Shown here in pieces: positions 27,001 to 36,000 of a stretch of DNA of 64,000 nucleotides (positions are counted from its first letter, which is position 1; the number at the start of each line of letters is the position of its first letter). The position numbers are program-made. This stretch comes from an uncultured Candidatus Saccharibacteria bacterium (lineage in GTDB: Bacteria; Patescibacteriota; Minisyncoccia; Ryanbacterales; GWA2-47-10b): assembly GCA_964356915.1 (NCBI GenBank), contig CAYHJF010000003.1:17579-81578 (forward strand). The letters run 5' to 3'.

Positions 27001-30000
27001 TCAAGAATCTCCCGCCATCGCTGCAGGATTTTTTACCGCAGCAGTTCTCGTCCCCTTTGCCGAAGGACTTGGAGCTTGGAAAGCATTTTATGATGGGAAA
27101 ACATGGTTCAAGAAAAAATCTCTCGTTAACATACGAACTCACCTCATATATGGAACTGTCATGCTGAGTATCGCATATCTAATTTCTTCCAAATCTCTCC
27201 CTCTTTGGCAGGCTCTTATTCTTCTCATCGGAGGAGCATATCTCACGAATGCGACCGTCAATACAATTATGTATCGGCAAACCGTACGGGCTATAGAATC
27301 TCCTCAAATAAAAAATAGCGAAACAATTCGGTATGGCATTCATCTTGGTATCCAAGGCATGCCAGCAACAATCGCCTATTGGATTGATGGCATACTTCTC
27401 TACACATTTCTCGGACCCCAAGCTCTCGCCATCTACTCTTTTGCAATAGCTCCGGTTGAACAAATGAAAAGCCGCCTCGGATCAATCGCCGATATCAGCC
27501 TTCCAAAAATTTCCTCAAAAACAGCGTTCGATTCTTCATATCGATCCGCGCTCATACGAAAAACTCTTCGGGCTTCTGGCATGACGCTCCTTGTAGTAAG
27601 TATGTACATCCTTGCCGCTCCAGCACTTTTTTCCATTCTACTGCCACGGTATAACGGGGCGGTGCCTTATTCGCAAATCTTCGCCCTATCACTCATTCCA
27701 TTTCCTCTCACCATTCTCTCATCTGCACTTATCGCTGAAGGTAGTATGCGCAAGACATATACATACAATATAGCAGGGCCCGTGTTGCAGATTGGAATAC
27801 TAGTAGCTCTTATTCCATTCTTTGGTTTATGGGGAGCAATCGTAGGGAAAATGATTGGACGTTTCTTTAACTATGCATTGCTTGTTTTCCTCTACCAAAA
27901 ACCGATGCAACCGCGCGATACCACCCTTTCGGCAGCCTAACGAGTACATACGCACCAATATATTTTATATTCCAAGGCTGTGCGCGCATCGCATCCCAAA
28001 GATATTGTCGCGCATCTCCATCCATATGACGTAGCGCGTATGCGTGACCAAGACGATAATTTTGACGCGCGTATACTGATGGAAATAACAGAAATTCTTC
28101 ACGATGTTTATCAAATGTTTTTCTACGCGCCTCTAGCCGCCTTCCTTGGTTACTCGTCAAACTATCTCCCATAACTACCGCTCGTACACCCACCATTGAA
28201 ATAAAAATAAACTCGTACTCACGTGCAATTCGCAACCAAAAATCCCAGTCCTCAAGCCAATTAAGCGCCTCGTCAAAATAGCCTATACGGTCAATACATT
28301 CTCGACGCACCAAAGCAACCTGCATAGTAATAAAATTACCCTCCAGTAATTTCTGGTACAAATTACCGCTCGTTGGATGAAAATTCAGAGCAGGAACAAG
28401 GACTGTTGAGGCATCTCGCATCGTCTTTTCAAGGCGCGTATACACCACTCCGACATGAGTTGAAGCCTGCTCGAGCACTGGCACTTGTTCTTCAAGCTTT
28501 TGAGACGTCCATTCATCATCTGAGTCTTGAAAGGCAAAAAATACTCCGCGAGCTGCCCGCAAACCCGTGTTTCGACTTACAGCAAGACCTTTATTAACAT
28601 CATGCCTCACATATCGAACACGCTCATCGCCGAAACTCTCCACGACTTCTTTTGTATTATCGATTGATCCATCATCGACAACAACGAGCTCGAAATCCTT
28701 ATACGTTTGCTCGAGTACGCTCTTTATTGCCTTCGGCAAAATATACGCACGGTTGTACGTAGTGAGAATAATGCTTACCTTTGGCACGCGAGTCGTCATG
28801 ATAGTAAAAACTTCTCCTTCCTATTTCTTTATTTTTAATAAAAAAAAGTGATGAGATGGATGCTCTGGCATTCGATACGATTTCAAAATCTGAAAATAAT
28901 GCCGGATATCATCCTCACATCGCTTGAGCGTAATACCATTTACCCCAATCTCCCAGTGATGCCCTCGTACATCCTGAGAAAAATCTCGCATAATCGTCCC
29001 TCGTTTTTCATAAAAAAACTTTACTCGTCCTACAATTGGTAAATTCGCATTCAGGCTATACCATGGCGTGTTGTTGGGGATAGAAACAACAGCATATGTT
29101 GTAATACGAGCGATTTCTTCCAACGCATGCGAAAACTGATCATATGGAATATGTTCAAGAACTTCAGCAGCAAGCACTACATCAAATTGTCGATCTGTGA
29201 AATGAGTCTTCTTTGTAATATCGCCTACGACATCTGGCGCAAGTTCACTATCAATATCCATTGTTGTCGTCTGAATATTATTCTGCGCTAAATAGTTTTT
29301 CACAAAACCATTTCCATGTCCTATCTCAAGTACCGCGCGAGGTGTCACAGAACATACCTCCGAAATCTGATGCCAATAACTCAAAAACCTCCGCTTTGAG
29401 TCGTAGATATTTCTGTGATAATGGCGAGCCTCTGGTTGCGTGGGCATAATAAAATTATGACTATAAAAAACTCCTTACACTACCTTGTAGAATAGCCTGC
29501 GCCTGTAAAAAAGAAAAGAAAAAATCGCCTACACTAATAATTGCTTTTTTGTCATTTTATGGCATAGTTCTACTATTATGCAGGATGTGCATTCTACGAA
29601 ATTATCGATCGTTATTCCCATATATAACGAGGCAGGAAACGTAGCTCCCCTCCACAAAGAGCTCCTCCAAATACTCAGAACACTTGGGCATTCATTTGAA
29701 ATTATCTTCATTGATGACGGCTCTCGAGACACCACATCAAAGGAACTCTCACTCTTACATCCTGCGCGCGTCATCTCTTTCACCAGAAACTTTGGGAAGT
29801 CACAAGCACTCCTCGCAGGTTTTGAGGCAGCTCAAGGTGAGATTATCATCACTATGGATGGAGACCTGCAAGATGATCCTCACGAAATTCCAAACTTTCT
29901 CACTGAACTCGAAAAGGGATACGACTTGGTATGTGGGTGGAAACGCTCGCGCCAAGATTCTTCTACTAAAATCATTGCGTCTAAAATTGCCAACTGGATA

Positions 30001-33000: not shown

Positions 33001-36000
33001 ATTCGGGTATTGAATGTACGGTCAATGAGTTGCGCCTTACTTCGAATACTATTAATATTGGGTACGCAACCAAACAAGACACCACAACACTAGAAGTATC
33101 TGGATATCTCAAACACGCTCAAATGCGCCCCCTTGGAACACTTTCCGGAATAAGCCTGATAATCTTTCAATATACATTTGGCCGCTTACCTTGGATGCAA
33201 AAACTCATAAAGAAAATATTCCGCAGTCTGCTCATTACATCTCCAAAAAAATCTACCGTACCATTTCGCCGAACAATTACGCTACATGAAGACTTTATAA
33301 CTACCCAGGATGTTATAGAAGCATCTATCCCCCTAAAAAAACCTATCGTTGGTAAAAAAACATCGTACGCACTCATCCCAAGCGCTCAGTACTTTACACC
33401 TCAGGATATAACCCCTACGCACGAGCACGCTATCACTCACGAACACTCTCGAACAATTATAAAACGTCATCTCGCATAACTACGCACTTCATGCATCGAT
33501 TTGAATTCAAATACCAACTCGATCCCGTCCAAACCCTTGAAGCACGCTCTTTTTTGAATCGTATCATGCAACGCGATTCCTATGCTCCTCAAGGATGGTA
33601 TTCGGTAATCAGCGTCTACTTTGATTCGATCGGGCTTCGCGATTACTACGAAAAATGCGGCGGTTTTTTAAACCGTAAAAAAATCCGCCTCCGAACATAC
33701 GAGGGTGCTGGACGATACTGGCTTGAGATGAAAGCAAAACATGATATGGGATTTCGAAAAGTACGCGCTGAGATTATTGAGCAAGACTGGCATGATTGCA
33801 TTGATCACAACTTAACACGCATACTCAGTCGTATCCGCCCAGCTCAAGATCAGTTAGCCCTCGAAGAACTCCTCGGCATCATCATCGGGGAAGCGCGAAG
33901 ACCAAGTGCATTCATTCGATATCGACGAACTCCCCTTGTATTTGGAACTCTGTCAGACCCTATCCGTATGACATTCGATGAACAAATAGAAGCATCTTTC
34001 GACATAGGTCTCGATACCCCTCAATCAATAACATCCATCCTCCCCCACGGTTCAATTTTAGAAGTTAAATTTGCCAAAACACTCCCGTCATGGTTTGGAA
34101 CACTCGTCCGACAACTTCACTTGACCCGCACCAGCTTTTCCAAATATGCTAATGCTATCGACGCACTACACCGCTATAAGCCTTTACCAAAATAAAAAAA
34201 CCTATGAACCAAAACTTTCTCACTAACTTCTATAACCTGACTCAAACTGAACTGAGCGCTACCGTAATCGTATTCAATATACTCTTCTCGTTTACTCTCG
34301 CCTACGGGGTTGTATGGGTCTGGCGCAAAACCCACAAGGGTCTTTCCTACTCTCAATCATTTGCCGTTACTCTTGTCATGATCGCGCCACTCGCATCAGC
34401 AGTCATGATGATCGTACAAAATAATCTTATCGGAGCATTCGCGCTTCTTGGAGCATTTTCACTCATCCGTTTCCGCACCATCATGAAAGAAACGCGCGAC
34501 ATTGCCTTTCTTTTCTTCGCTCTCACGATTGGCGTCTCCGTTGGTACGGGTTATTACTCTGTCTCCATTCTTACGACTGGAATTGTCTCTAGCCTCATAC
34601 TCATCTTATACCGCTACAATTTTGCTTCCGCCTCAGGGACAGGATTCTTACTCACCTTTCACTCATCAACCGCGCTTGATGCAAATACTATTGAATTACT
34701 CTTTGGCGAATTTCTAAAGTCTCACGCTCTACTCCATGAAAAAGCATCCGCAGATGGCTTAGAGTTTGCCTACTCTCTTCACTTTAAAAAAGAAGGTCTG
34801 GAACGCGCATTCGTTGATCGCATACGCTCAATTGCGAGTGTTACCGACGCATTTTTGCTCACCGGCAAAGACTCAATCGAGTACTAGCTCTTTTTCTCTA
34901 GTATAAAAAAACGATGATATGGGTTTTCAAAAACCCTATACGTTTTTATAATTCGGAAACCTATGTTTTCAAGATCGCTCGTAATACGACGAAGCGAAAA
35001 TTTACTTTTCCCAATTTCCCAATGATGACCGCTTTTCGTTAGTATATGTGTTTTTGCAACCAAACGCGGGACTGTATACACGCGCCGCCAGATACCAAGA
35101 CCAGGAATCGGCAACTGAATTGGCAATGAACGCGTTGCGTCAGGGAATGAGACTATCACGCCTTGGCGAGAGACTCTATAGAGCTCACGAAGTGCTAATA
35201 ACGCATCACTGTATGGCATATGTTCGAGTACTTCATATGCGACTGCGAGATCAAACTCTTTATCTTGAAACGGCATACTGCGTGCATCAGCAACATAATC
35301 CGGACCCAGGGCTGAATCCAGATCAACAGTCGTCACTTGCATATCAATCGCCCGTAAATACCTACTCACAAAACCACTACCCACTCCAACTTCAAGAACC
35401 TCTTTTGGGTTACGTGTTATGACTTCAGCAATCTGATGCCAATAACTCGCAAAACGCCTCTTGGAATCATATTTTAAATTATGATAGTGACTTTCTTGCA
35501 TAGTATTCTTTAATGCGCACAGTCGCATAACACGCGAGGATAAGGAGTAATGGATTAATAGGATATCTTAATCGCGCTCCAACACCAAACCCAGTACTCA
35601 CGACGGTAGCGCTAATGAAATATGTAATATAAGTAAGGAAGAACAGTGCCTCAACACGATACTCTTGATAGAGCATATAGAGACCAAATATCGAAAGCAG
35701 TGCAATTATCTTCCACATAATCTTTCCTACAATCACCGCAACTAACTCGGGCGCACGTAACTCACGCGCAGCCGCAAGTACCTTAGACGGCCAATCTCGC
35801 ATCACGAGAACTGGAGGTGTTAGATAATTATGATGTGGCTTTATTTGTTCCTGTTGAGGCTTTTCAAAAAATACAGAGTACCCCTCATTTGTGAGCATCG
35901 CCGCAGTACTAAGTGCGCTCGCCACTATAAATTCCCGTGGATATTCGGTGACAAAAATCTTTAACGCAGCCCCTGTACTCTTACATCGCTCCAGTACTGA

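Follow-up and report, generated by a model that had tools for sequence, protein, structure and literature searches.

The stretch of DNA analysed here (64,000 nucleotides of contig CAYHJF010000003.1 from an uncultured Candidatus Saccharibacteria bacterium, hereafter the window) carries five consecutive plus-strand genes, in which a sugar-transferase cassette termed module A is followed by a VTC-DUF4956 gene pair termed module B. Module A begins with a family 2 glycosyltransferase (GT2) of the ArnC/GtrB/PgfS type (29578-30522, 314 amino acids), assigned with Pfam and NCBIfam models. The second gene (30529-31887, 452 amino acids) encodes a nitroreductase fusion (NTR fusion) that joins an FMN nitroreductase to a domain with a class I methyltransferase fold. 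The third (31875-33479, 534 amino acids) encodes a toroid plus beta-sandwich protein of an uncharacterised family, recognised from its AlphaFold model and called Tor534 here. Module B comprises a VTC protein, which is a stand-alone Vtc4-like triphosphate-tunnel domain (33491-34195, 234 amino acids; PF09359), and a DUF4956 membrane protein (34204-34887, 227 amino acids; PF16316). The junctions are, in order, a 6-nt gap, a 13-nt overlap, an 11-nt gap and an 8-nt gap. This listing of open reading frames agrees with the initial annotation, which had described five same-strand genes with gaps of no more than 13 bp or short overlaps, and all of its domain assignments hold, with VTC and DUF4956 both passing Pfam profile searches.

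A promoter-like site, TTGTCA-16-TACTAT (29549-29576, plus strand), ends 2 nt before the first ATG and lies inside a 130-nt divergent intergenic region, and a terminator-like hairpin (34921-34936, plus strand) starts 34 nt 3' of the fifth gene. The former is a consensus match only and the latter a pattern match only, and such matches around the five genes are not enriched relative to shuffled sequence. The DUF4956 gene overlaps by 4 nt a convergent minus-strand gene for a class I methyltransferase (34884-35528; Pfam Methyltransf_11). Also on the minus strand are genes for a GT-C glycosyltransferase of the PMT_2, ArnT-like type (35479-36801; PF13231) with at least eight transmembrane (TM) segments, and for a 134-residue SMR/EamA-like protein with four TM segments (36801-37205; sub-threshold Pfam matches) that is a candidate ArnE/F-type flippase. 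A plus-strand gene farther upstream (17853-20192; Pfam CotH and Beta_helix) codes for a CotH kinase-like protein carrying a right-handed beta-helix. GC content and GC at third codon positions are uniform across the genes of both modules, and composition therefore gives no hint that either was recently acquired from elsewhere. Two Hainich groundwater assemblies from 0.1-um filters contain the locus in identical form, and NCBI labels the locus proteins as belonging to a Patescibacteria group metagenome-assembled genome.

Module A is widespread. In a scan of one genome per GTDB species, at least 578 representatives encode a Tor534 relative. Hosts within the candidate phyla radiation (CPR) include Sung-, Zambryski-, Taylor-, Giovannoni- and Nealsonbacteria as well as Saccharibacteria. 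Outside the CPR, the family is found in DPANN archaea, Dictyoglomota, Nitrospirota, Omnitrophota and Armatimonadota, and further hosts are Methanosarcinales, Methanoperedenaceae, Theionarchaea and Asgard archaea. The neighbourhoods of the best 80 loci, taken with 10-kb flanks, were searched with the window proteins by tblastn. A match to the ArnC-like GT2 is present in 68 of the 80 and a nitroreductase match in 36; VTC and DUF4956 match in two loci each, and the window's own PMT_2 protein matches in none. The usual order is GT2-(nitroreductase)-Tor534 on a single strand, and the GT2 orthologues located just 5' of Tor534, including those from other phyla, share 40-59% identity in the closer half of the family.

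Similar associations are seen among the 53 Tor534 loci whose flanks each extend for at least 3 kb, for which partners were identified by clustering neighbour proteins and scanning representatives. A GT2 of at least 40% identity lies within 3 kb in 26 of these loci, a nitroreductase is nearby in 26, either a nitroreductase or an FrhB-like flavoprotein in 30, and a recurrent flippase-like or GT-C membrane partner in 27. LPG_synthase_TM proteins occur near Tor534 in 16 loci, PMT_2 proteins in seven, and a fusion of LPG_synthase_TM, PMT_2 and polysaccharide deacetylase directly 3' of Tor534 in nine. Three contigs labelled with Pfam domains illustrate the range of arrangements: GT2-NTR fusion-Tor534-PMT_2-GtrA in Niyogibacteria, GT2-Tor534-NTR-LPG_synthase_TM in Heimdallarchaeota, and GT2-Tor534-[LPG_synthase_TM+PMT_2] in the third. 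C-terminal TM segments are present in 39 of 41 ArnC-like GT2s encoded near Tor534, and rarer neighbours include B12-radical SAM enzymes, GT4 transferases, AsnB-like proteins and UDP-glucose dehydrogenase. Because of this neighbourhood pattern, module A is best viewed as a Gtr/Arn-type system for lipid-linked sugars to which one or two cytoplasmic enzymes have been added, and in the window the convergent PMT_2 and SMR-like genes supply its remaining components. A literature search for a GT2-nitroreductase-toroid cassette returned nothing, and the Tor534 cassette appears to be an undescribed and widespread variant of three-component lipid-linked glycosylation.

Two variations on this arrangement were observed in individual loci. 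The triple fusion is a protein of 760-950 amino acids (L014 11158-14004 and eight others) that places ArnE/F-, ArnT- and ArnD-like functions on one polypeptide. In five loci (including L040, 8677-9903) an FrhB/FdhB-like iron-sulfur flavoprotein adjoins Tor534 on the same strand; L040, the only one of them that was checked, has no nitroreductase match in the Tor534 neighbourhood, which suggests that the redox partner is exchangeable.

Module B has its own conserved setting. We searched 83 VTC-centred loci. A metagenome scan with the eight closest VTC sequences gave 80 VTC loci in addition to the closest relatives, and 33 have flanks of at least 3 kb in each direction. DUF4956 is adjacent to VTC in 32 of these 33, bearing out the earlier statement that the two nearly always travel together. 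A protein of about 750-830 amino acids with CotH and beta-helix domains is encoded directly upstream of VTC in 25 of the 33, and glycan-type genes are nearby in 29. No match to Tor534 or the NTR fusion was found among the VTC loci listed, from four genes upstream to five genes downstream of VTC. The closest VTC homologues (45-47% identity) come from related Patescibacteria glycan loci with the order GT2-VTC-DUF4956, followed by the same methyltransferase/PMT_2/SMR-like/NUDIX/UbiE-MT/GT2/DegT block as in the window. Homologues of the convergent methyltransferase (45-56% identity) hold the same position in loci L084-L088, and the SMR-like protein is 59-62% identical in relatives. The GT2 upstream of VTC in these closest relatives is soluble and akin to the product of window gene 27867-28799, not to the ArnC-like GT2. 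The window CotH protein is 34-49% identical over its full length to CotH proteins encoded directly upstream of VTC elsewhere. Its gene lies 13 kb upstream of VTC, whose immediate upstream gene is Tor534.

The two conservation patterns rarely meet. Where VTC and DUF4956 occur within 10 kb of Tor534, in one Giovannonibacteria locus (L063) and one Taylorbacteria locus (L013), they form a separate CotH-VTC-DUF4956 operon 2-8 kb away. Because each module is conserved without the other, the five-gene unit is most readily explained as a local rearrangement, in which a VTC-DUF4956 pair would have split from CotH and been appended to a Tor534 operon. Thus, we assign a probability of roughly 60% to the reading that two independently conserved modules have come to lie side by side in one glycan island in this lineage. 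The initial annotation had instead proposed a single five-gene pathway, to be regarded as refuted if the genes were not linked in other genomes. Essentially no such linkage was found elsewhere, given that the only two instances carry a separate operon, and one conserved pathway is not supported.

An integrated pathway, wherein the GT2 product would be modified by the NTR fusion and Tor534 and then receive a phosphate or polyphosphate substituent from VTC and DUF4956, nevertheless draws on several features of the locus. The five genes are co-directional with junctions of no more than 13 nt and are probably read as one transcript, the VTC-DUF4956 pair fills the slot that Tor534's flippase or GT-C partner occupies in other genomes, and both modules reside in one glycan island in the window and in the L063 and L013 loci. 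Co-residence of this kind is expected by chance, however, in small Patescibacteria genomes with large glycan islands. Moreover, the scarcity of VTC and DUF4956 near Tor534, their association with CotH where they do occur there, the lack of Tor534 or NTR fusion matches in the surveyed VTC neighbourhoods, and the different, soluble GT2 that precedes VTC in its closest relatives all argue against a single pathway, which we consider unlikely. The 11-nt gap between Tor534 and VTC counts against the juxtaposition reading, since the modules are almost certainly co-transcribed here and a functional link between them is consequently possible in this organism. Any such link beyond action at the same cell surface is inferred, and the five-gene arrangement first noted does not as such represent a conserved system.

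The GT2 of module A matches Pfam Glycos_transf_2 (E=7.5e-30), and its best NCBIfam models are ArnC, PgfS and AglJ. The nearest of these, ArnC (E=1.6e-53), is matched with 181.8 bits, far under the 529-bit equivalog cutoff, and the protein is therefore not ArnC itself. Two C-terminal TM segments (residues 238-256 and 263-281, by hydropathy) are in keeping with the GtrB-like assignment made initially, which can now be stated as ArnC/GtrB type. The PMT_2 protein scores 31.8 bits against a cutoff of 26.1. A PMT_2 gene is found directly 3' of Tor534 in other genomes, and the window enzyme is the likely user of the lipid-linked sugar. The product of 36801-37205 has four hydrophobic segments, with Multi_Drug_Res and EamA matches that are sub-threshold, and GtrA_DPMS_TM or LPG_synthase_TM genes take the flippase-like place in homologous Tor534 loci. 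Module A resembles the Arn and Gtr/CsbB-GtcA-YfhO systems in having a GT2 with C-terminal TM helices, a flippase candidate and a GT-C enzyme. As with ArnD in the Arn pathway, extra cytoplasmic enzymes stand between the GT2 and the flippase, and the polysaccharide-deacetylase domain present in some Tor534 loci also recalls that pathway. However, the GT2 differs from true ArnC in its score, and neither of the two tailoring enzymes, the NTR/methyltransferase-fold fusion and Tor534, is known from the Arn or Gtr/CsbB-GtcA-YfhO systems.

In the NTR fusion, the Pfam Nitroreductase match (E=7e-23) is confined to the N-terminal ~175 of 452 residues, which adopt the PF00881 fold and carry an RxSxR flavin-phosphate motif. 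The C-terminal ~275 residues gave no Pfam match even at E<=10. The predicted structure of this region (about 185-452) is a class I methyltransferase fold, which confirms the fusion noted in the initial annotation and identifies its partner domain. Among database homologues, the C-terminal domain is almost always fused to a nitroreductase. The full fusion is present in 17 of the fetched Tor534 loci (18 sequences with the window copy, L001), and the remaining Tor534 loci that have a nitroreductase encode a stand-alone enzyme of about 215 amino acids.

The AlphaFold model of Tor534 is confident (pLDDT 91.6, pTM 0.92) and agrees with the earlier call of a toroid. Residues 1-333 form an (alpha/alpha)6 toroid and residues 336-534 a beta-sandwich, into which a helical hairpin of hydrophobic and basic character is inserted at 422-455. 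A Foldseek comparison against the PDB yielded whole-chain matches to glycosaminoglycan, alginate and xanthan lyases and to dermatan-sulfate epimerase; the top 25 matches are all lyases or the epimerase, and the two-domain matches span 360-410 residues. The sequence itself is far more isolated. No Pfam family is matched at E<=0.01, including the PL and Hepar_II_III models, a search of PDB sequences returned nothing even at E<=10, and the faint matches consist of a precomputed Ulvan_lyase_N hit and TED_complement at E=0.03. A word-indexed search recovered 388 homologues, mostly unnamed. An alignment of 36 sequences has about 50 invariant columns that are mainly polar or aromatic, and the invariant residues include Y204, Y211, Y263, Y305, N159, N260, R259 and R304.

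Tor534 thus has the two-domain fold of the toroid lyases (PL8, PL12, PL15, PL17, PL33 and PL35) and dermatan-sulfate epimerase 1, but shares only about 10% sequence identity with them and belongs to none of their Pfam families. Unlike the degradative lyases, it is cytoplasmic, because it has no signal peptide or N-terminal hydrophobic segment, and it has no invariant histidine and carries the extra hydrophobic/basic hairpin. Its genomic context also points to a biosynthetic role, in contrast to the degradative role of the toroid lyases. The initial annotation had described the protein by a QW motif, and three loose matches to Q-x(2-5)-G-x-[WFY] are present (QRADGSF at 94, QKFKTGAY at 178 and QSKEGWW at 195). 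A few homologues are annotated as terpene cyclase/mutase or prenyltransferase-repeat proteins. On this basis, Tor534 could be a polyprenyl-binding or terpene-cyclase-like QW toroid that acts on or chaperones the lipid moiety. We regard this as very unlikely, since a regular-expression search found neither a DxDD nor a DDxxD motif in the protein, the terpene-synthase structural match is limited to the toroid (250 residues) whereas the matches that cover both domains are lyases and the epimerase, and the constant partner of Tor534 is a sugar transferase.

The analysis establishes the order of the genes, their domains and folds, the conserved catalytic residues and how each module is conserved. 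The mechanisms that we suggest for Tor534, the NTR fusion, VTC and DUF4956, with their substrates, individual chemical steps and the direction in which polyphosphate moves, are inferred from fold, conserved residues and gene neighbourhood. In module A, the membrane-anchored GT2 would move a sugar from a nucleotide sugar to polyprenyl phosphate at the cytoplasmic face, and the NTR fusion and Tor534 would then tailor the resulting lipid-linked sugar. The tailoring chemistry would likely be proton abstraction by Tor534, of the epimerase or eliminase type, coupled to a flavin redox step. The modified lipid-linked sugar would be flipped by the SMR-like protein and passed by the GT-C enzyme to an extracytoplasmic acceptor. 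Several observations temper this proposal. None of the histidines of Tor534 is strictly invariant (conservation is 89% for H42 and 75% for H247), and the usual Tyr/His catalytic set of the lyases and epimerase is at most putative in it. In addition, motif I of the methyltransferase-fold domain of the NTR fusion is non-canonical and lacks GxGxG, which makes SAM binding uncertain. A nearby UDP-glucose dehydrogenase would argue for a uronic-acid substrate, but this gene is found near Tor534 in only 8 of the 80 loci.

The VTC protein of module B matches PF09359 with E=1.3e-31 and a score of 110.4 bits (cutoff 23), and the match extends over positions 2-235 of the 235-position profile. It is a soluble protein that consists of the tunnel domain only, with no TM segment and no SPX domain. 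Searched alone against the PDB, the sequence returned only noise, and Vtc4 was reached with a family profile instead: one built from 21 bacterial VTC homologues matches the catalytic domain of yeast Vtc4 with E=7e-18, ahead of Vtc2 and Vtc3. We take the catalytic and tunnel residues of Vtc4 to be K200, R264, R266, K281, Y359, R361, R373, E426, S457 and K458, a list that reportedly goes back to Hothorn et al. 2009. The alignment pairs window residues R3, K7, R66, R68 and E79 with Vtc4 R196, K200, R264, R266 and E279, respectively. It likewise pairs K81, K90, Y144, R146 and R159 with K281, K294, Y359, R361 and R373, and E191, K193, S217 and K218 with E426, K428, S457 and K458. All of these window positions are invariant or nearly so, and those paired with the listed catalytic and tunnel residues are either invariant among the 21 homologues or conserved in at least 90% of them. 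The yeast VTC complex used for structure determination carries R264A/R266A/E426N (PMC9911596), a choice of mutations that is consistent with an active-site role for these residues.

The DUF4956 protein matches PF16316 with E=1.1e-10 (42 bits against a gathering cutoff of 30.6) and has five hydrophobic segments followed by a soluble C-terminal domain of about 90 residues. Its invariant residues are R89, R91, K95, D99 and G114. The positive-inside rule predicts a cytoplasmic location for the loop with the invariant R-F-R-T-x3-K cluster and for the C-terminal domain. The family comprises 4,886 cluster representatives at 50% identity, and the best 150 of these are mostly stand-alone proteins of about 220-235 amino acids, the rest being mainly shorter fragments; the three longest of the 150 contain DUF4956 only. 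The window CotH protein (Pfam CotH, E=2e-16) has an N-terminal TM segment at residues 5-23.

Gene sets resembling module B have been published. Whitfield et al. reported an accessory group of cotH, a 'poly-phosphate polymerase', DUF4956 and DUF4832 that is contiguous with the pel loci of Gram-positive bacteria and occurs in streptococci, clostridia and bifidobacteria (10.1101/768473). Lepp et al. described VTC-domain genes in NELoc-2 of C. perfringens, each followed by a gene for a membrane protein of about 225 amino acids, near a CotH gene (PMC2879425). As in these sets, the window has a VTC-DUF4956 pair and CotH in one glycan island. It differs from them in its host, a member of the Patescibacteria, in the 13 kb that separate CotH from the pair and in the attachment of the pair to an unrelated operon. 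DUF4832 and pel genes, which are part of the published set, were not seen here, although no search was aimed at them. Other papers that name DUF4956 are transcriptome tables, and a search for functional studies of bacterial VTC or DUF4956 returned gene lists or unrelated papers only. Thus, the earlier view that none of these genes had been described stands for the Tor534 cassette but not for the CotH/VTC/DUF4956 set, and module B is a known but uncharacterised cassette.

A further comparison can be made with the eukaryotic VTC complex. In yeast, a belt of basic residues connects the exit of the Vtc4 tunnel with a pore whose walls carry Lys and Arg, and the channel entrance is basic as well (PMC9911596). 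The bacterial pair shares with this complex the Pfam domain, the conserved catalytic residues and a membrane partner, which in bacteria has an invariant basic cluster. In contrast, eukaryotic VTC has SPX and VTC/DUF202 TM domains, both of which are missing from the bacterial protein, and DUF4956 is a separate protein of different topology with no detectable homology to Vtc1. The bacterial pair also differs in having a CotH kinase-like protein as its third partner.

It is plausible from these sequence features that VTC and DUF4956 form a polyphosphate synthase with a membrane partner. In the simplest model, drawn by analogy with the tunnel-to-pore basic path of the yeast complex, VTC would dock on DUF4956 and polymerise phosphate from ATP, and DUF4956, acting as a translocase, would present the polyphosphate chain at the membrane or pass it on. 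The CotH/beta-helix protein, which is extracytoplasmic and membrane-anchored, would probably act next by using or attaching the exported polymer. Bacterial polyphosphate is thought to be made by PPK enzymes. A bolder version, which we consider doubtful, is that VTC-DUF4956 is a PPK-independent synthase-translocase that exports a donor or substituent for glycan phosphorylation by CotH, and that in this Patescibacteria lineage it has been linked transcriptionally to a Gtr-like lipid-linked sugar cassette in which the tailoring by the toroid protein and the flavoenzyme is new chemistry too.

The synthase-translocase model must be weighed against the alternative that VTC is a tripolyphosphatase, an NTP hydrolase or a polyphosphate sensor and that DUF4956 is not a channel but a membrane protein with an MgtC-like regulatory function. 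CYTH/TTM enzymes are mainly hydrolases (PMC4641920, PMC8233210), the bacterial protein lacks the SPX and TM domains of Vtc4, one DUF4956 relative has a weak MgtC match (E=0.004), and the few small proteins (about 86-91 residues) that the DUF4956 C-terminal domain matches are hit without significance (E 0.15-0.8). We nevertheless judge this alternative improbable. The best profile match is to catalytic Vtc4, with Vtc2 and Vtc3 behind, all of the residues taken as catalytic in Vtc4 are invariant, and the obligate association with a membrane protein recalls how eukaryotes couple synthesis to a membrane pore (PMC9911596). Some results do reduce our confidence in a synthase-translocase: no VTC-DUF4956 fusion was found among the best 150 DUF4956 representatives, a DUF4956 profile gave no significant match in the PDB and hence no solved homologue, and no similarity between DUF4956 and the transmembrane domain of eukaryotic VTC could be detected. 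The searchable literature also holds no biochemical data on bacterial VTC, DUF4956 or Tor534.

If these proposals are correct, module A would suggest an undescribed modification of polyprenyl-phosphate sugars in organisms with surface-mediated episymbiosis, in which the classic GT2-flippase-GT-C route is extended by a flavoenzyme and by a protein of lyase/epimerase fold. The intact Vtc4-like active site of module B, together with its membrane partner and, usually, CotH, suggests a second, export-coupled route to polyphosphate. Polyphosphate exported in this way is a possible source of phosphoryl donor for a kinase that functions outside the cell. VTC, DUF4956 and CotH genes are also present in culturable bacteria, where they should be easier to study.

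In four to five of the VTC loci, a protein of about 530 amino acids from the sulfatase family (LtaS/EptA-like; L129 1570-3159) is encoded after DUF4956, two genes past VTC. This protein is a possible transferase of phospho-substituents to surface polymers.

The five genes reside in a surface-glycan island of about 55 kb, where almost all genes between about 2.5 and 57.8 kb of the window are of glycan type, as befits the cell-envelope setting proposed in the initial annotation. The island encodes an initiating Bac_transf enzyme, a Wzy_C/TPR protein, a Wzx-type flippase, sugar-nucleotide enzymes, many GT2 and GT4 transferases, methyltransferases, one carbamoyltransferase, five PMT_2 paralogues and the CotH kinase-like protein. 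A defence-system reading was dropped because PADLOC models gave no match for the five proteins or for CotH, and Rfam and tRNA scans of the 64-kb window revealed no RNA gene.

The five PMT_2 (GT-C) paralogues are located at 8924-10408, 15813-17105, 20189-22903, 35479-36801 and 45468-46772, which is an unusually dense set of lipid-linked-sugar transferases for 64 kb of a small-genome organism. One of them, of 904 amino acids, is fused to a PQQ/BamB-like beta-propeller. In the region 23061-25287, the carbamoyltransferase (608 amino acids) is followed by a small SxtJ-like protein (137 amino acids) and preceded by a GDSL hydrolase, and the carbamoyltransferase-GDSL pair is also kept beside the Tor534 operon of the Giovannonibacteria locus L063. 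A split transketolase, with genes for a 269-residue N-terminal and a 309-residue C-terminal subunit (10405-12145), sits amid sugar-nucleotide epimerase and dehydratase genes. Tandem RtcB RNA-ligase paralogues of 479 and 466 amino acids (48593-51435), followed by a CDP-alcohol phosphatidyltransferase (51438-52265), are surrounded by the glycosyltransferase genes of the island. The GC skew of the plus strand is uniformly and strongly negative (-0.09 to -0.25) over window positions 1-60000. From 60000 to 64000, a stretch that covers a gene for a 1181-residue protein with a peptidoglycan-binding domain, the skew returns to about zero and GC content rises to 0.47-0.49.

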